From Methanofastidiosum sp. (lineage in GTDB: Archaea > Methanobacteriota_B > Thermococci > Methanofastidiosales > Methanofastidiosaceae), in the NCBI GenBank assembly GCA_041678455.1, contig JBAYOH010000003.1, positions 1 to 57,900 of the forward strand: DNA of 57,900 nucleotides, written 5' to 3'. Positions within the stretch are counted from its first letter, which is position 1. Each line of letters begins with the position of its first letter. The notes beneath the pieces were generated by a model that was not told the origin of the DNA, did no database searches, and saw only the letters and a program-made list of their open reading frames with translations. A program made the translations under genes and the position numbers. Positions 50,589 to 57,900 of this stretch are shown here, in pieces.

Positions 50589-50870
50589 GTTTTTGGGGGA
50601 GCCAAAAAATTTTTTTGTACCCTTCGAGAAATTATACTGCATTGGCTCCCAAGCTAAAGAAATTGGGTACATTTATATAATTTTGGTTGATTCGAATTGA
50701 ACACTAATTCTAATAAAAGATTTTATGTTACCGCTAACAAAAACTAAGGTGAAAAGATTAATATATTTGAAAATTAAGCTAAAGGGGCTTAAAATGAATG
50801 ATGTAGATAGACGTATTTTAAAGGAATTAGACAAAATATAGAAAGATTTAGATAACGGCGAATTATCTAT

Positions 50871-51080
50871 ATGAATAAGGAAGAATTTCTAAAAGAAATT
50901 CAGGATTGTGGGTATATTCCTCCAATATTTAAAACAAAAATAAAAGATTTGACTGTTGAAGAGTTTCGTTCACTTTTATCGAATATTATAAAAGAGGCCA
51001 CGGATGATTTGAAGGAAGACATGTTGGCTCTTACAAGTCAGACATATATCTATTCAATTGAAGAATCAAGAAAAGATTAG
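50871..51080 (+). pseudogene. Antitoxin-like ORF, probably truncated
   Basis: Ends SIEESRKD* with EEGNFF continuing in frame; preceded by a stop-interrupted mini-ORF 50794-50874. Confidence 0.4.
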
Positions 51081-51260
51081 GAAGAAGGAAATTTTTTCAT
51101 TTTAGGAAATGGAGAGCGATATTATTTTAATAGATTAAAAAAATAAGAGACGAACTTTCAGTTTATTATGCCTCCAGAATGAAATTGTAATCAAATATAT
51201 AATGGCGCAGCTTCCAATAATTTTATATACCTAAGTATACCAAAGTATACAGGTGTTGTT

Positions 51261-51497
51261 ATGGCCACTACTATCAAAATCCATGAAGAAACTAAGCAGG
51301 AAATAGATTTATTTAGAGAATATAAAAATGAAAGCTATGACGAAGTTATAAAAAAAATTTTGTATATTGTAAAGAACTGTAAGGATAATAAAGAACTAAG
51401 CCTAGAAACTATCGAAGCGATTGAAAAGGCAAGAGAAAGGATAAAAAAAGGCTATTTTTTAACAGAAGAAGAAGCAAGATTAAGGCTTGGATTATAA
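51261..51497 (+). CDS. RelB-like archaeal antitoxin
   Basis: MATTIKI...ESYDEVI...IKKGYFLTEEEAR. Confidence 0.75.
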   Translation: MATTIKIHEETKQEIDLFREYKNESYDEVIKKILYIVKNCKDNKELSLETIEAIEKARERIKKGYFLTEEEARLRLGL

Positions 51498-51546
51498 TAT
51501 TCGAACGTCAGGAAACTTTTTTAACTTTGAAATATTTTCAAAGTAG

Positions 51547-51797
51547 ATATATCTAATTAAATTTGATTATGATGCTATTGATTTTCTTAATAGTTTATCA
51601 GAAAATATAAGCAGAATTTACTGTAAAATTATCCTGCAAAAGATAATCCACATCACTATTTTGAAAAATTAGCAAGTAGAGAAGATTATAAGCTTCGAGT
51701 TGGAGACTATAGAGTTATAGCGGATATTAATGATCAAAGTAAAGTTATTAATATAACTCATATAGGTCATAGAAAAAATATTTACAAAAATATATAA
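51547..51797 (+). pseudogene. relE: RelE toxin, frameshifted, ATA at expected start
   Basis: YLIKFDYDAIDFL... then YKLRVGDYRVIA...IGHRKNIY* in another frame. Confidence 0.8.
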
Positions 51798-51808
51798 TTA
51801 AAAATCAA

Positions 51809-51881
51809 CGGACCAGGGGGGATTCGAACCCCCGACCTATAGCTTAGGAGGCTATCGCCATATCCACTAGGCCACTGGTCC
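51809..51881 (-). tRNA. tRNA-Arg(CCU)
   Basis: GGACCAG/CTGGTCC stem, ATAGC-CTCCTAA-GCTAT, GTTCGAATC. Confidence 0.95.
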
Positions 51882-51892
51882 CAAATCGGATT

Positions 51893-53713
51893 TTATAGTA
51901 TTATATATAAGTTTTTACCATTTAAAATTCCATCTTCGATCTGCTCGGCGATTGGATTTTTGTTTGATATCTTGATTTTTCCAGATTTTGGAACATTAAT
52001 CTCTTCAAGATACTCATCTTCTAAGAATATCTTGATGTTTTTACGGGCAAACTTTTTTTCAACATTTATGAGAACATATTTTTCCCTGAAGTCTACATCT
52101 ACCGGGATTCTGCCCTTTTTCCCCTTCTCTTGAGTCTTTTCCATTGGCCTTACATCAATTGAAAATCCTATTGCGTTTTCAAGTGCCCTTATGTTCTTGC
52201 CTTCCTTGCCGATTATTGAAGGGATGTCGTCATTTTTTAAGTATAGTGCAATCCTGGAATCTGAAACTGCCTCTAGATCAAATTGTATCCCAAGCTCGGC
52301 GTTTAATTTTTCCTTTAGCTTGGATAAGGCCAATTTTTTCATGGGAGAAGTTTCTTTTCTCCTGGCCTTAAGCGGCATGACTACGACCTGCTCCCCATAT
52401 GTGTAAATCTCATAGAGAGGCGTCTTTGTGTAGAAGTCCTTTATTTCAACTATTGGCCTTGCAAGGTCAGCTTCGCTCATGCCGTGGGGCACCTTCACAA
52501 GAAATTCTAATTCTAAAACAGAATTTACCTCTCCGTTTTTTATGAAGATAATGGTATCTATAAGCTGTGGGATGATACCTAGCTCAATTCTTCCTATGAA
52601 ACGTTGTATAGCATCAACAGGCTTTGTCGCATGGACAACACCGACCATGCCAACACCTGCTAATCTCATATCAGCATAAATCTTGAAATCATTTGTGACC
52701 CGCATCTCATCGAAGATTGTGAAGTCTGGCCTTACCAAAAGCAGGATATCCCCAGTTTTTGCCATATTGCCTTCTAAAGCGGTATACTGAGTTATCTCAG
52801 GCTGGACATTTAGATCCCTTGGCTTTTCCATAGTCTTTACTATTTTTTCTAAAGATGCATAAAATTCTGCTATGGCCTGGGCAAATGTAGACTTGCCCAT
52901 CCCAGGTGCACCTGCAATAAGAATGCCTTCTGCAGTTTCAAGCCTCTTCATTAGCTGCTCAGGCAGATTATACTCTTCAAGTGTGAGTTTTTTTACCGGT
53001 CTTACAGCTGTTATTTCAAATCTATCTGAAAACGGCGGTGAGGTGATGACTATCCTATATTCTTGCAACTGGACAACGCTTGCACCTTTTTCGTCAAGCT
53101 CAATGAAGCTGTCCTTTGTAGTTTTTGCCCGCTCTAAGATATTAAGAGAGATTTCTTTTAGCTCATCTTCGCTGTAAACTCTATCAAACTTTTCTAGGGC
53201 TATTGTGCCAGGCTTTCCTTTTTTTCGTGCAGGTGTTATCCCATCCTTTAGATGAACAGAAAGAGTTTCTAAATCAAAGAAATCTTCGATCTTAAGTTTT
53301 ACTTTTTTATATGGTTTTAGAAAAATAGACTGTACCCCTTTGGCCTCGGCAATATCCTTCTGTATTAAATCCCCTGTGATAAGGGTGCCGCCTAGGTCCA
53401 TTGCGGCTTCCCTGATTACGGCATCAATGTCTCCCTTTTTTGCACCTGCTATCTCATATCTTGTTAGCCTCCTGCCGTAGTATTCTAAAGGTACGAATAT
53501 CTCTCTTGATATATTGAATATAGCCTTTAACTCTGAAATGCCAGATATACCAGAGGATTTTCCCTCGTTTGCCAGATGCTCAATTTCGGCAACTGTAGCT
53601 TCGGCTATAACAATTCTTTCTAATTCTTTAGCAAAATCAGCGTCACGCAAAAGGGCTTTAAATCTACCGTCGACAACAACGGATGTATCTGGTACAGCTA
53701 TCATATGGATCAC
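51893..53713 (-). CDS. PIN-ATPase-KH protein (PINA / PINc-VapC family ATPase)
   Basis: PDTSVVVDG, GAPGMGKS, DEMR, GVVHAT, IIGKEGKNI. Confidence 0.92.
   Translation of the reverse strand: MIHMIAVPDTSVVVDGRFKALLRDADFAKELERIVIAEATVAEIEHLANEGKSSGISGISELKAIFNISREIFVPLEYYGRRLTRYEIAGAKKGDIDAVIREAAMDLGGTLITGDLIQKDIAEAKGVQSIFLKPYKKVKLKIEDFFDLETLSVHLKDGITPARKKGKPGTIALEKFDRVYSEDELKEISLNILERAKTTKDSFIELDEKGASVVQLQEYRIVITSPPFSDRFEITAVRPVKKLTLEEYNLPEQLMKRLETAEGILIAGAPGMGKSTFAQAIAEFYASLEKIVKTMEKPRDLNVQPEITQYTALEGNMAKTGDILLLVRPDFTIFDEMRVTNDFKIYADMRLAGVGMVGVVHATKPVDAIQRFIGRIELGIIPQLIDTIIFIKNGEVNSVLELEFLVKVPHGMSEADLARPIVEIKDFYTKTPLYEIYTYGEQVVVMPLKARRKETSPMKKLALSKLKEKLNAELGIQFDLEAVSDSRIALYLKNDDIPSIIGKEGKNIRALENAIGFSIDVRPMEKTQEKGKKGRIPVDVDFREKYVLINVEKKFARKNIKIFLEDEYLEEINVPKSGKIKISNKNPIAEQIEDGILNGKNLYIIL
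51901..51916 (-). promoter_or_regulatory. BRE-TATA for tRNA-Arg(CCU), embedded in the 3' end of the PINA gene
   Basis: Minus strand AAAAACTTATATATAA about 25 nt upstream of the tRNA. Confidence 0.5.
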
Positions 53714-53718
53714 AAGGA

Positions 53719-54462
53719 CTAGTATATTTCTCCCTGCGGGTAAACGACTATGCCCTCTTTTGATATAGAAAATGGGTACTGTTTTATCTTGTGATTTGTC
53801 TCCCTCATCTTTCTGATGAATATGCTCCTCTTATACTCTGCCATCCTAGGCATGGTCTTCTCACCTTCCACAAGATGCATTGTGATGACCCCTCTTGTTA
53901 TGAACTCCTCATATCCGAATCTAGAATACCCTTTACCATTTATTATCTCAGTTATCAAAATACAAGTTGCATTTGTCTCTGTTAGAACCCTACCCATCAT
54001 GTAGATATCATCACGCATTTTTTCAGGTTCATCTGAAAAGAAAAATGCAGGGAGCGAGTCTATGACAATTCTTTTTGCATCTATGTCCATAGCTATCTCA
54101 TATAATTTTGAAAGAAGAGACTTTATGTCGACATCACTTTTGACGTAAAAATTTTCATCTGTTGGAACTCCAACCCGAAGCGATGCAGCGTCAAGTATGG
54201 CGATCTTTTTCTGATCTTCGTACTTTTTTAAATCCCACCCAAACTGGAGCGCTTCTCTCCTAAGCTCCTCAGGTTTTTCTTCAAACGTTACATAAATGCC
54301 AGCTTCGCCAAAGTCCTTGGCACCGGAGTAGATATACTGCAGGGAAAATATAGTCTTTCCTGTTCCTGCCTCACCAGACAACAATATTGATGAGCTTTTT
54401 GGGAGGCCTCCGCCTATTAGTTCATCAAGACCTTTAATTCCTGTCTTTACCCTATCTTCCAT
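53719..54462 (-). CDS. Single-domain KaiC/RAD55-like ATPase
   Basis: TGIKGLDELIGGG, GEAGTGKT, FEE, VIDS, IRKMR. Confidence 0.9.
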   Translation of the reverse strand: MEDRVKTGIKGLDELIGGGLPKSSSILLSGEAGTGKTIFSLQYIYSGAKDFGEAGIYVTFEEKPEELRREALQFGWDLKKYEDQKKIAILDAASLRVGVPTDENFYVKSDVDIKSLLSKLYEIAMDIDAKRIVIDSLPAFFFSDEPEKMRDDIYMMGRVLTETNATCILITEIINGKGYSRFGYEEFITRGVITMHLVEGEKTMPRMAEYKRSIFIRKMRETNHKIKQYPFSISKEGIVVYPQGEIY

Positions 54463-54472
54463 ATATTCTCAC

Positions 54473-54766
54473 CTATATTCTTAACGTAACTAGGAAAAAT
54501 GCAAGTATCATTATTACAAGCCCTAATATAAATACACTAAAAGATGTGTTAATAAATGCTTCCTTCCTTATATTTTCCTCCCTTAGTTTTGAGGATTTAA
54601 ATGCGGTAATAAATGATCCCATGAAGAGTATGCTTGATATTAATAGGAAAACAGATAACGATTCTTTGTATATATAATTTGATATGAGCGCATACTGTGC
54701 CAAAAATAGGGATACCGCAAACATTATGGTTGATGCATTAAGCATACTCTGTGATGTCTTGCCCAT
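54473..54766 (-). CDS. Three-TM hypothetical protein
   Basis: Hydrophobicity; tight operon spacing. Confidence 0.7.
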   Translation of the reverse strand: MGKTSQSMLNASTIMFAVSLFLAQYALISNYIYKESLSVFLLISSILFMGSFITAFKSSKLREENIRKEAFINTSFSVFILGLVIMILAFFLVTLRI

Positions 54767-55176
54767 TACCTCACCCCCGCCATAAGCCCGTAAAGATAAA
54801 AGACATACCCTAAGACACCAATTATCAGGTAAATCATATATTGATTCTTCTGATCATTTTCTTCAAGGTTGTATTTGAACTGGAGTATGATGTGGATTGT
54901 GTAGAGAAAAATTGAGATTAGAATACTTGATGATCTAGCAATTTCAGGGTATGACGCAGGCGAGAACTTCAAAAGCGCGTTTAGAATATCTGACGAGCTT
55001 AAGATAAATATGAATAGAAGAAGATACCCCATTATGGAAAAAGTTTGTCCCATGATAAAATACATTGTTTTTGACTTGTAGTCGTTTGTTGTGTTAAATA
55101 AAATGAATGTGATAATCTCTACCGTGAAAAATAGTAGTATGGCTGTTCCAATGCCTAAAAATAGTACGTCTACCAT
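54766..55176 (-). CDS. Four-TM hypothetical protein
   Basis: Hydrophobicity; 1-bp overlap with next gene. Confidence 0.7.
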   Translation of the reverse strand: MVDVLFLGIGTAILLFFTVEIITFILFNTTNDYKSKTMYFIMGQTFSIMGYLLLFIFILSSSDILNALLKFSPASYPEIARSSSILISIFLYTIHIILQFKYNLEENDQKNQYMIYLIIGVLGYVFYLYGLMAGVR

Positions 55177-55184
55177 GGAATCCC

Positions 55185-55790
55185 TTATATTGTGAATCTA
55201 TCAAATATTACTTTATTATTATCTATCCGATACTTTATTCTTTTATAGTTTCCGCTATAAAGCTTACCAAAATCGACATAGAATATCTCTTCGCCCATTT
55301 CAACGACCCGCTCTAGAAATAATGTAGCTTCGGCTAGGTGTCTTATTGATATCTCCACTTCGTCCTTGTGCATGCCTTTGTGGAGAAGGATTATTATTCT
55401 AGCGTTTTTTTCTCTCCCGATTGCAAATAATCTCTGGAGAAACCTATATACGGGAACAAGACCCAATGTAACTATCAAAGGCGATATGGAGTCTATGATT
55501 ACTGTCGTGTGTTTCCCAGTCTCCTCCCTTGCCATGAAGATATTTCGTATTATCTCATCTAGATCATATGCATAAGTGATATGGTATTTTTCAGAGCTTT
55601 TGATGCCAAGCCGTTCAGTATAGCAATCTATAATGAATTTAGGCTTGAAGAGTTCTCTAATTTCTATGGGGCTTTTGTCTATACCGACATAGATTAAATC
55701 GCCCTTGATTAATTCTTTGCCAAAATACTCCTTTCCAGTTTCTGGCTCCCCTAGAAGAAGTATGTGGTTCTGTTCTAGCTCTTTGAGCAT
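55185..55790 (-). CDS. Degenerate KaiC/RecA-like ATPase
   Basis: LLGEPETGKE (T>E at the last Walker A position), IIDSIS. Confidence 0.7.
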   Translation of the reverse strand: MLKELEQNHILLLGEPETGKEYFGKELIKGDLIYVGIDKSPIEIRELFKPKFIIDCYTERLGIKSSEKYHITYAYDLDEIIRNIFMAREETGKHTTVIIDSISPLIVTLGLVPVYRFLQRLFAIGREKNARIIILLHKGMHKDEVEISIRHLAEATLFLERVVEMGEEIFYVDFGKLYSGNYKRIKYRIDNNKVIFDRFTI

Positions 55791-56218
55791 AGGGCGATCT
55801 CACCCCAGATTTTATCTATTTCGCTTATTGTTGCAACTTTTATCCCAGGGAGGTCTAGCTTTGGTTTGTCTGTACCTGAGTATATGGCGCAGAACTTTCC
55901 TATCTGCATGAATGAATCCTTGAGTTTTACTGCGAACAATATCCCCTCCATTTTTCTCAATCTTTCGAATAGATCCTCAGCCTTTTTTATTGTGATTGAG
56001 TCGATTGCATAAGTTTCTGGGACTATTTCAATGATGTAGTAAGTTTCACCAAGTTTTTTGTGATTTAGAGTTAATCTGTAATTTAGGACATTTTTCAGCT
56101 TTTTTAAGCGGAAGTGAATAGTGGTATCTGGAATATTTGTGATTTTTGAGATGTCAGTTATTGAGATTCTCGCATTTTCTCTCATGACATCTATAATCTT
56201 TTGATCAATATCTTTCAT
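55775..56218 (-). CDS. Lrp/AsnC-type HTH regulator with atypical C-terminal domain
   Basis: IDQKII...NARISITDISK...TTIHFRLKKL. Confidence 0.8.
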   Translation of the reverse strand: MKDIDQKIIDVMRENARISITDISKITNIPDTTIHFRLKKLKNVLNYRLTLNHKKLGETYYIIEIVPETYAIDSITIKKAEDLFERLRKMEGILFAVKLKDSFMQIGKFCAIYSGTDKPKLDLPGIKVATISEIDKIWGEIALCSKS

Positions 56219-56388
56219 GAAGAGGAATTAAATCTGATACTATTTAAATTTATCGCAATTTAATTTGTTATAATTGGAATTTAATTATTGATATCTATAA
56301 TTATTGCGAATTTAACATAGATTACCGAAACACTTAAAAACAATTCAAAGCAATTTATCATTGTCCATGTATTAATGGAGATGATGAA

Positions 56389-56871
56389 ATGATGAAATTT
56401 TTTAGAAAACACAGGAAGGCTGTATCACCAGTTATTGCGGTCATGTTATTGGTCGCAGTAGCAGTAGCAGCCGTTGGAGCATACTTTATTTGGTTTAGAT
56501 CTTTCCAGACGCAGACTCAGAAGTCAGTCCAAGAACAGAGCAGTGGTGCACTTGGTAGTGGATTACAACTTGTTTCCATGACGGATGATAGAGTAAACTA
56601 CTATGTGGTATTTAAAAACACTAGCGGATCTCCTATCACATTAAAAGAAGGAAATGGAAGTGCAGTTGTAGCTAATCCTGGAGGAAATCTAACAATTGGG
56701 ACTTCTGAAAAAGTAATTGAAAAAGAAAGTGTAGACACAGTTACTGTTACACCTGGTGGTGGATTCACTCCAAACCGAGGTACCACTAGAACCTTTACTA
56801 TTACCTATACTGTGGGTTCTGGAAGCGATGAAAGAACAGAAGTCTTGGTAACAACATACACAGACTCATAA
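56389..56871 (+). CDS. Archaeal type IV pilin
   Basis: Class III signal peptide RKHRKA-VSPVIAVMLLVAVAVAA. Confidence 0.88.
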   Translation: MMKFFRKHRKAVSPVIAVMLLVAVAVAAVGAYFIWFRSFQTQTQKSVQEQSSGALGSGLQLVSMTDDRVNYYVVFKNTSGSPITLKEGNGSAVVANPGGNLTIGTSEKVIEKESVDTVTVTPGGGFTPNRGTTRTFTITYTVGSGSDERTEVLVTTYTDS

Positions 56872-56994: not shown

Positions 56995-57900
56995 ATGGCT
57001 TTTATCAGAAAAAAGAGTAAAGGCAACAGTTACTATTACGAGTTAGTCGAAAGTAAAAGAAAAGGTAACAAAGTCATGCAAAAAGTCCTGAAATACTTCC
57101 CGTCTCTTAAAGAGGCTGAAGAGTATGCAAAATCAGAGAATATCCTCCTTCAAATCGATTATGGCAAGTGGCTAGATAACGATCTTAAAGAGAGGCTAGA
57201 AAATAAATTCAAGACACTAAACAATCTAAGGCCTCTGTCCGAAGATGTTCTAAATACTATAAGAGATAAGTTTGAAATCGATATGAGTTACCATTCAAAT
57301 GCTATAGAAGGGAATAGGCTTACGCTACGCGAGACATGGCTTGTAATAAGAAAAGGAATTACAATAAGCGGTAAATCTTTAGAAGAGCACCTTGAAGCAA
57401 CAAATCATAGAGAGGCAATCGAACTAATAGAAAAAATTGCAGGTAAAGGTGAAGATATAACAGAAATAGATGTTCTAAATCTTCATGCCTTAATTCTTGA
57501 TAAAATAAATCCACAAAACGCCGGATTTTACAGGCGTTCAAACGTATTTATACAGGGCTCAGAGTTAAAACTTCCAAAGTGGAGAGATGTCCCGGTATTA
57601 ATGGAAAGAGTATATGAAGAGCTAAACAATCAGGACAAAGGGATTGATGCGATCTATTCCTCAGTTAAAATACACTATGATACTGTGAGAATACACCCAT
57701 TTATTGATGGGAATGGGAGGCTGGCACGACTTCTTATGAATTTAAGACTAATGAGAAGTGGATTTCCTCCAGCCATACTAAGAAAAGAAGAAAGAAGGGC
57801 ATATTACTCCGCATTGGAAAAGGCCGATAAAGGAGACTTGAGACCTTTGACGATGATAATTGGGAAAGATATTGAAAGAGCGCTTGATCTGTATATTGAA
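56995..57900 (+). CDS. Fic-domain protein (3'-partial; absent from ORF track)
   Basis: Open frame from ATG 56995; HSNAIEGN and HPFIDGNGRLAR motifs. Confidence 0.92.
   Translation, partial: MAFIRKKSKGNSYYYELVESKRKGNKVMQKVLKYFPSLKEAEEYAKSENILLQIDYGKWLDNDLKERLENKFKTLNNLRPLSEDVLNTIRDKFEIDMSYHSNAIEGNRLTLRETWLVIRKGITISGKSLEEHLEATNHREAIELIEKIAGKGEDITEIDVLNLHALILDKINPQNAGFYRRSNVFIQGSELKLPKWRDVPVLMERVYEELNNQDKGIDAIYSSVKIHYDTVRIHPFIDGNGRLARLLMNLRLMRSGFPPAILRKEERRAYYSALEKADKGDLRPLTMIIGKDIERALDLYIE

Follow-up and report, generated by a model that had tools for sequence, protein, structure and literature searches.

A KaiC-like gene module conserved between a divergent type IV pilin gene and PINA in Candidatus Methanofastidiosum and its sister family

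Introduction

Few uncharacterised putative signalling proteins of archaea are as abundant as the KaiC-like ATPases, and Makarova, Galperin and Koonin reportedly proposed in 2017 that some of these ATPases belong to signalling modules, or 'hubs'. PINA, a protein with PIN, ATPase and KH domains, is universal in archaea and has been reported to be essential in Sulfolobus islandicus; we know of no regulator of PINA and, for the euryarchaeal PRK13764 type, of no biochemistry. Among the systems described, the KaiC-like protein ArlH acts in archaellum regulation (PMC5019145) and the KaiC-like protein CirA affects the regulation of pilin-dependent motility (PMC10983859). PH0186 of Pyrococcus horikoshii is a single-domain KaiC-like ATPase of the RecA superfamily whose function is not known (PMC5019145) and which a review has placed among the aRadC proteins (PMC4080772), while S. 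islandicus PINA is a branch-migration ATPase that binds Hjc and Hjm (PMC6061704). Here we analyse a block of seven genes in a 57,900-nt stretch of DNA (contig JBAYOH010000003.1, positions 1 to 57,900; hereafter the window) from a 1.57-Mb metagenome-assembled genome of Candidatus Methanofastidiosum, a member of the class that also holds Thermococcus and Pyrococcus. In this block, six co-directional minus-strand genes, encoding a helix-turn-helix (HTH) regulator, a degenerate KaiC-like protein (dKaiC), two membrane proteins (TM1 and TM2), an active KaiC-like ATPase (hereafter KaiC) and PINA, face a plus-strand type IV pilin gene across 170 bp.

Results

Conservation and packing of the block

Translated searches, together with inspection of the fetched neighbourhoods, recovered the pilin gene divergent from the gene order HTH-dKaiC-TM1-TM2-KaiC-PINA in eight Methanofastidiosum genomes. 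All seven genes were also found in the sister family (f2; genomes G017, G023, G031 and G020), where the encoded proteins are 32-58% identical to their counterparts in the window, which belongs to family f1. The genes flanking the f2 block map to eight different contigs of the window's genome, and only the block itself survives. Conservation of the neighbourhood had been named as a check when the block was first singled out from its letters and open reading frames (hereafter the sequence-only reading). The order is indeed kept across both families at ~50% protein identity while both flanks have been scrambled, which argues for selection on the block and for its genes belonging together. Only these two families have the arrangement as a whole.

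The sequence-only reading had described six tightly packed genes divergent from a pilin gene, and the open reading frames lie where it placed them (Table 1); family scans likewise agree with the gene identities that it assigned. The HTH and dKaiC genes overlap by 16 nt, dKaiC and TM1 are separated by an 8-nt gap, the TM2 start lies on the TM1 stop (1-nt overlap), and gaps of 10 and 5 nt precede KaiC and PINA, respectively, the latter widening to 14 nt if PINA starts at ATG 53704. The KaiC and PINA genes of f2 overlap by 4 nt in two of the four genomes and abut directly in the others. Shine-Dalgarno-like motifs are present upstream of dKaiC (GGGGTGA), KaiC (AGGTGA) and PINA (GTGATCC). Spacing, ribosome-binding motifs and conserved order are together consistent with transcription of the six genes as one unit.

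An active KaiC of the PH0186 clade and its relatives

The active KaiC scores 242 bits against the Pfam KaiC family (PF06745; cut-off 26.6), and alignment of its translation to PH0186 and to the CI domain of KaiC revealed intact Walker A (GEAGTGKT), catalytic FEE (VTFEE) and Walker B VIDS (RIVIDS) motifs. Its closest solved relative is PH0186 (PDB 2zts; 230 bits over the full length), and the phylogenetic tree places it inside the PH0186-like clade with support of 98/98; it is the sole PH0186-like gene of the genome. A hexameric ring, the form taken by PH0186, is predicted from this relationship. The aRadC protein Sso2452 also matches KaiC, at 105 bits. Two features that had been listed as peculiarities turn out to be ordinary. 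The 'TRG instead of DG' in EEFITRGVI is a subfamily signature, since PH0186 reads EEFIARGVI at the same place, and the absence of the Ser/Thr phosphosites of CII is expected, because the protein aligns best to the CI domain of KaiC. Two named KaiC families were rejected because their defining features, when tested, were lacking: clock KaiC (155 and 187 bits against cut-offs of 546 and 408 for TIGR02655 and PRK09302, in a single-domain protein of 247 aa) and ArlH/FlaH (NCBIfam NF052589; 50 bits against a cut-off of 215).

Genes of the PH0186 type keep similar company elsewhere in the class. In the Thermococcales, a four-gene row (Table 1) comprises a PH0186-like KaiC, a second KaiC-like gene with an intact Walker A (GKT/GKS), a 383-aa membrane protein without family assignment and a TctA-like membrane protein. 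In family f3, a PH0186-like KaiC gene is divergent from one encoding a PF0864-type AsnC regulator (Pfam PF22482, 122 bits), a pair that is a simpler form of the regulator-KaiC link in the window, and in f2 a paralogue of the PH0186-like KaiC is preceded by a KaiC-like gene that has no Walker A Lys. Judged by this recurring company, a KaiC accompanied by another, often degraded one, by membrane proteins and by a PF0864-type regulator represents an older theme, of which the window operon is one elaborate version.

A degenerate KaiC and two orphan membrane proteins

An inactive partner in the KaiC pair had been proposed from the sequence, and the catalytic motifs of dKaiC are indeed degenerate. 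Its Walker A reads GEPETGKE, with the Lys kept and the Ser/Thr gone, and the catalytic Glu-Glu is changed to Asp-Lys, with the Walker B Asp kept. All nine aligned members share a GxPxTGK[E/R] Walker A and D[K/I] in place of the Glu pair, as well as the invariant motifs DCY.ER.G, AYDLDEI, ID.[LI].P and VYRF.Q.L, so that 'inactive but constrained' is a fair description of the family. The protein is predicted to be hydrolysis-dead but may still bind nucleotide, as it retains the Lys and the Walker B Asp. Its match to Pfam KaiC (25.1 bits) falls just below the 26.6 cut-off, and its AlphaFold model is poor, with a predicted local distance difference test score (pLDDT) of 56. A profile built from the nine members retrieves hundreds of single-domain KaiC-like proteins (best E=1.5e-24). 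Among 1.84 billion cluster representatives, only two 50%-identity clusters, one per family, are of dKaiC's own kind, and the next matches are ordinary single-domain KaiC-like proteins at no more than 103 bits, which marks dKaiC as a fast-diverged, order-specific KaiC offshoot. The Joint Genome Institute (JGI) annotation of dKaiC as FlaH was also considered and rejected: the protein has no match to the ArlH model NF052589, and the genome has no separate archaellum ATPase.

The two genes between the KaiC copies encode small, polytopic membrane proteins, as had been recognised from the sequence, and neither product matches a Pfam or NCBIfam family. Homologues of TM1 are confined to the Methanofastidiosales, and TM1 and TM2 together occur in f1 and f2 only. 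Hydropathy analysis indicates four helices with very short loops in TM1; the AlphaFold 2 model likewise has four helices, predicted with confidence (pLDDT 80) but of uncertain packing (predicted template modelling score 0.42), and a Foldseek search of the TM1 model against the PDB returned only generic helical bundles at E>1. In TM2, hydropathy indicates three helices, with a Lys/Arg-rich loop joining helices 2 and 3. The loops of both proteins are of few residues and neither protein has an extracellular domain. In the TM1 alignments E20, R81 and S82 are invariant and H95 is nearly so, all of them located in or near membrane helices.

The regulator and the 170-bp control region

The first gene of the operon encodes a protein matching HTH_AsnC-type (37.9 bits; cut-off 27) and HTH_24 (39.7 bits). 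Its family profile matches PF0864 (PDB 2ia0) over residues 2-121 with E=3.6e-17, and hhalign pairs it at 97% probability with the KaiC-adjacent PF0864-type regulator of f3. By these matches, the regulator is an Lrp/AsnC protein of the PF0864 subtype. The PF0864 homologues of the Thermococcales are not near any KaiC gene.

Promoter and candidate operator elements were assigned in the shared spacer from the known archaeal architecture of transcription factor B recognition element (BRE) and TATA box. On the HTH side, a TATA-like TATTTAAAT lies at 56241-56249; the TATTTAAA box adjoins TTCGCA, and its position, centred ~27 nt upstream of the regulator ATG, suggests that the regulator transcript is probably leaderless. 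On the pilin side, a BRE/TATA-like ACCGAAAC-ACTTAAAAAC is found at 56324-56341, where ACCGAAA..TTTA.A, ~50 nt upstream of the pilin ATG, resembles a BRE followed by a TATA box. Both TTCGCA and ACCGAAA..TTTA are invariant in 12 aligned spacers from the two families. The inverted pair pointed out in the sequence-only reading, TCGCAAT at 56253-56259 and ATTGCGA at 56303-56309, is real, and the whole 1.57-Mb genome contains only four TCGCAA/TTGCGA inverted pairs of 6-mers whose arms lie within 100 bp. Eight of ten genus members retain the second, inverted copy, TTGCGA, and the f2 spacers carry three to four direct TTCGCA/TTCACG copies. The other motif reported with this pair, AATTTAA, did not hold up: the spacer, an AT-rich promoter region, has four copies in 72 bp, but across the window the motif is rarer than chance (35 seen against 56 expected), and it was rejected as a specific element. 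The conserved promoter-like and repeat elements fit the proposed link to transcription, through regulation by the HTH protein.

A further palindrome, TCCAT-N6-ATGGA (56364-56379), is situated where the pilin mRNA is predicted to begin, overlapping the Shine-Dalgarno sequence of the pilin gene. It is invariant in all ten genus spacers, with a 1-nt insertion in G011 that still permits pairing. The corresponding hairpin in the 5' untranslated region folds with z = -2.0, and its stem is invariant in the genus, so that covariation neither supports nor opposes it; the palindrome could serve either as a binding site for a repressor or as a hairpin acting on translation.

The divergent pilin and the pilus machinery

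The pilin matches Pilin_N (29.3 bits; cut-off 25.2) and TIGR02537 (23.3 bits; cut-off 20), and carries a class III signal peptide, RKA/VSPVIA..., within a nearly invariant RKA/VSPVIAVMLLVAVAVAAVG segment. Conservation is good over the first ~80 residues, with hardly any change at residues ~10-40 across f1 and f2, and the C-terminal half is hypervariable. Strong orthologues were found in f1 and f2 only, always beside the module. The description of this gene as a lone pilin holds locally but not genome-wide: a second, paralogous pilin is encoded elsewhere, together with a Tad-like cluster on contig C14 (one T2SSE ATPase, two T2SSF [TadB/C-like] proteins and an FG-GAP protein) and a prepilin peptidase (Peptidase_A24; C4:23365-23688). 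The kit needed to use the pilin is thus complete in the genome. No second T2SSE ATPase is present in the genome, which therefore has no separate archaellum ATPase.

Neighbouring genes on the pilin side were also recorded. In the f2 genome G017 (L066 4647-7394), the module's pilin is followed by genes for an STT3/AglB-like oligosaccharyltransferase (590 aa) and a second pilin-like protein (157 aa), which hints that the pilin may be N-glycosylated in that lineage. In the window, a Fic-domain protein (Pfam Fic, 63.7 bits) is encoded directly downstream of the pilin on the plus strand, from 56995 to the window end at 57900 and beyond; a Fic gene occupies the same position in G012 and G016, and not in other genus members.

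PINA and the adjacent tRNA gene

PINA scores 777 bits against NCBIfam PRK13764 (NF010335; cut-off 340) and 472 bits against the Sulfolobus equivalog NF053733, below the cut-off of 800; its function is therefore extrapolated from that of S. islandicus PINA. A PIN domain was detected at 25.5 bits (cut-off 23.6), with KH matches below threshold at 22.2 and 19.8 bits. The start at ATG 53704 (603 aa) is more likely than GTG 53713 (606 aa), since database entries are of 603 aa, the sister-family proteins begin at the equivalent Met, and the GTGATCC just upstream of this ATG matches the anti-Shine-Dalgarno sequence.

The gene is single-copy in 117 of the 121 genomes of the class. In families f3, f4, f5 (Thermococcaceae) and f6, it is not beside a PH0186-like KaiC or any other module gene, and the same was true of a thin sample from beyond the class, three contigs of which one carries the label Thermoplasmata. 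On these grounds we rejected the idea that KaiC and PINA are paired in archaea generally, and the absence of this adjacency elsewhere identifies it as an innovation of the f1+f2 lineage.

A tRNA-Arg(CCU) gene, missed in the first reading, lies on the strand of PINA, 11 nt past its stop codon. The final codons of PINA (…NLYIIL*) contain a TATA-like TTATATATAA, and the tRNA is followed by a T-rich stretch. The tRNA gene is kept after PINA in seven of seven Methanofastidiosum loci and is absent in the sister family. Beside it, 1.2 kb of the window (50600-51800) has a GC content of 26-28%, with ~40% in the neighbouring genes, and contains small plus-strand open reading frames whose presence varies in the genus, one of them weakly matching DUF7557 (24.2 bits; cut-off 25). 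This stretch may be what is left of an element that integrated at the tRNA.

Two variants of PINA were seen in other families. In about a dozen Thermococcaceae genomes, the homologue is a single frame of ~1200 aa (Table 1) in which the match is interrupted at residue ~275 of the query, within the P-loop region, by what looks like an intein-type insert. In f4, frames of 862 aa (G025:C16:1364-3109) and 748 aa (G030:C95:1951-3711) run 150-250 codons upstream of the homologous start without a stop; the extension has no KaiC similarity and could be an N-terminal extension or chance.

Table 1. Coordinates of the block in the window and of related loci in other genomes
Feature	Position	Strand	Remarks
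Type IV pilin	56389-56871	plus	160 aa; Pilin_N 29.3 bits
Shared control region (spacer)	56219-56388		170 bp between regulator and pilin genes
Regulator (HTH)	55775-56218	minus	147 aa; first gene; assigned to Lrp/AsnC, PF0864 type
dKaiC (degenerate KaiC-like)	55185-55790	minus	201 aa
TM1 (orphan membrane protein)	54766-55176	minus	136 aa
TM2 (orphan membrane protein)	54473-54766	minus	97 aa
KaiC (active, single-domain, PH0186 clade)	53719-54462	minus	247 aa
PINA (PIN-ATPase-KH)	51893-53713	minus	606 aa from GTG 53713
tRNA-Arg(CCU)	51809-51881	minus	Rfam tRNA 70.6 bits; ARAGORN call
Thermococcales four-gene row	L076 5954-9764		Pyrococcus-like G035; also L074, L077
f3 KaiC/PF0864-type regulator pair	L078 5546-6832		G021; same in G024
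Thermococcaceae ~1200-aa PINA frame, example	G086:C1:762099-765644
Thermococcaceae ~1200-aa PINA frame, example	G079:C1:1691335-1694883

Discussion

A candidate KaiC-switch circuit

The reading of the block that we tentatively favour, while regarding it as far from assured, is that of a lineage-specific, autoregulated KaiC-switch circuit controlling the pilin, with PINA co-expressed. Under this model, a promoter ~27 nt upstream of the first ATG would drive HTH-dKaiC-TM1-TM2-KaiC-PINA, and the PF0864-type regulator would bind the TTCGCA repeats between the two BRE/TATA elements, thereby controlling both its own operon and the divergent pilin gene. The PH0186-type KaiC would form a hexameric ring and, with its dead paralogue, act as a nucleotide-driven switch that sets the activity of the regulator, a mode of action proposed for archaeal KaiC-like 'hubs' and shown for ArlH and CirA. 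TM1 and TM2, with minimal loops and conserved polar residues, would dock this switch at the membrane, where they may sense the pool of unassembled pilin through the hydrophobic N-terminus of the pilin, much as in the pilin inventory control by PilS-PilR, as an accessory input. PINA, the only branch-migration ATPase of the cell, would have become the distal, translationally coupled gene in the f1+f2 ancestor and so be co-expressed with the switch, and the KaiC ring may contact PINA as ArlH contacts ArlI.

In favour of the model stand the closely spaced genes with their ribosome-binding motifs, the survival of the block in both families amid rearranged flanks, the spacer elements invariant in f1 and f2, the strong constraint on a dKaiC without catalytic residues, the recurrence elsewhere of a KaiC with a regulator, a partner and membrane proteins, the restriction of strong pilin orthologues to the families carrying the module, the complete pilus kit, and the described roles of ArlH and CirA (PMC5019145, PMC10983859). 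Several observations weigh against this model. TM1 and TM2 are both deleted in three Methanofastidiosum genomes (G002, G004 and G011) that keep the rest of the block. Two of these genomes were included in the tree and group as a clade there, which suggests that the genes were deleted once. The membrane-anchored complex of the sequence-only reading is therefore not essential, one subclade having dropped both membrane genes and kept the rest, and for the same reason we treat the membrane input as accessory. In the spacer, the second TTCGCA copy is missing in two of the ten genus members, and the first abuts the HTH-side TATA box and could be a mere part of the BRE. A genome-wide search found no TCGCAA/TTGCGA inverted pair at the second pilin or the pilus cluster, where gene starts are uncertain. 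The model gives PINA no necessary role, though KaiC-PINA is the tightest junction in f2, and the co-occurrence of pilin and module may reflect the shared ancestry of two sister families.

Alternative explanations

The main rival is a recombination or repair pair, in which KaiC, as an aRadC-type RadA paralogue, and its inactive partner would serve as a mediator with PINA at Holliday junctions or stalled forks, comparable to the Rad51-paralogue pairs of eukaryotes; the regulator would only autoregulate the operon, and the pilin would be a mere neighbour. This junction is the tightest and most conserved of the block (5-14 nt in f1, 4-nt overlap or abutment in f2), the counting of PH0186 among aRadC (PMC4080772) and the Sso2452 match connect KaiC to that group, and Sulfolobus tokodaii RadC2 binds the resolvase Hjc (PMC4080772), which along with Hjm is also bound by PINA (PMC6061704). 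Against it, the adjacency of PINA to a PH0186-like KaiC is absent in four other families and in the three outside contigs, so that the pairing is not general; PH0186-like genes elsewhere accompany regulators and membrane proteins, not repair genes; and the two membrane proteins and the conserved divergent pilin are left unexplained. We consider a repair pair unlikely. The link to DNA repair or uptake drawn in the sequence-only reading is likewise weakened, as it was founded on adjacency to a housekeeping PINA that has no such KaiC beside it outside f1 and f2.

The limitation of the arrangement to two families could instead indicate a composite neighbourhood, in which a KaiC/regulator module was inserted by chance upstream of PINA and next to a pilin gene in the f1/f2 ancestor, has not been broken up since, and contains genes that share no common function with their neighbours or each other. 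The orphan status of dKaiC, TM1 and TM2, the solitary position of PINA elsewhere and the deletion of the membrane genes without loss of the rest would all be expected. Such a chance assembly nevertheless sits poorly with seven genes that kept order, orientation and tight junctions while their surroundings were rearranged between the families, and with spacer elements conserved at the nucleotide level across ~50% protein divergence, and we think it improbable.

More speculative is an extension that would give PINA an active part: a KaiC ring, held at the membrane by dKaiC and TM1/TM2, might dock on a PINA hexamer, as ArlH does on ArlI, and gate branch migration by the state of the pilus or membrane. 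We regard such gating as quite improbable; if true, it would link DNA contact or uptake through the pilus to homologous recombination, and would provide both the first PINA regulator and the first assigned function in the PH0186 family.

The remaining possibility, that the KaiC pair with TM1/TM2 is an ArlH-like aid to the Tad-like ATPase that modulates pilin assembly or retraction rather than transcription, can draw on ArlH as the KaiC-like partner of a type IV filament ATPase (PMC5019145), on the single T2SSE ATPase and two TadB/C-like proteins of the genome and on the JGI name FlaH for dKaiC, but is very unlikely given that the ArlH model is matched adequately by neither protein (KaiC 50 against 215 bits, dKaiC not at all), that module and pilus cluster lie on different contigs, and that a transcription regulator as first gene points to control at the DNA level.

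Significance and comparison with known systems

What is new here is a KaiC module with three order-specific orphan partners and a conserved coupling to PINA and a pilin gene. For the PH0186 family there is a crystal structure but no known function, and the block links a KaiC of this type to three testable sets of partners: PINA, a regulator with a defined target of 170 bp, and the inactive paralogue together with TM1 and TM2. The small size of every protein involved makes heterologous expression feasible and offers a practical route to the function of a single-domain archaeal KaiC. The reach of the system is limited to two families of one uncultured order, in which PINA may be only a passenger.

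Its individual components have described counterparts. PH0186 shares with the window KaiC the Walker A, FEE and Walker B motifs, the EEFI[A/T]RGVI signature and membership of one clade, but is encoded by a Thermococcales gene unlinked to PINA, an Lrp regulator or a pilin. PF0864 of Pyrococcus furiosus is an Lrp/AsnC regulator with a distinctive C-terminal alpha+beta barrel; the profile of the window regulator matches it, although the C-terminal domain of the latter is too divergent for Pfam PF22482 or PF01037. S. islandicus PINA has, like the window protein, a PIN domain, a P-loop ATPase and a KH domain and is a single-copy archaeal gene (PMC6061704), whereas the window PINA is of the euryarchaeal PRK13764 type, ~100 aa longer and translationally coupled to a KaiC-like gene.

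As a whole, the block resembles the archaeal KaiC-like signalling modules in combining a single-domain KaiC, an inactivated paralogue, small membrane proteins and a DNA-binding regulator near a type IV filament gene; it differs from them in that dKaiC, TM1 and TM2 are orphans restricted to a single order and in that PINA ends the operon. The nearest functional analogy is to PilS-PilR of Pseudomonas aeruginosa, in which a membrane sensor with almost no periplasmic part, a nucleotide switch and a DNA-binding regulator serve the major pilin gene. The components of PilS-PilR are not homologous to the window proteins, so the likeness is one of analogy only: that of a compact membrane input which, in the Methanofastidiosum block, would act through a KaiC-type switch and a PF0864-type regulator on a divergent pilin gene.

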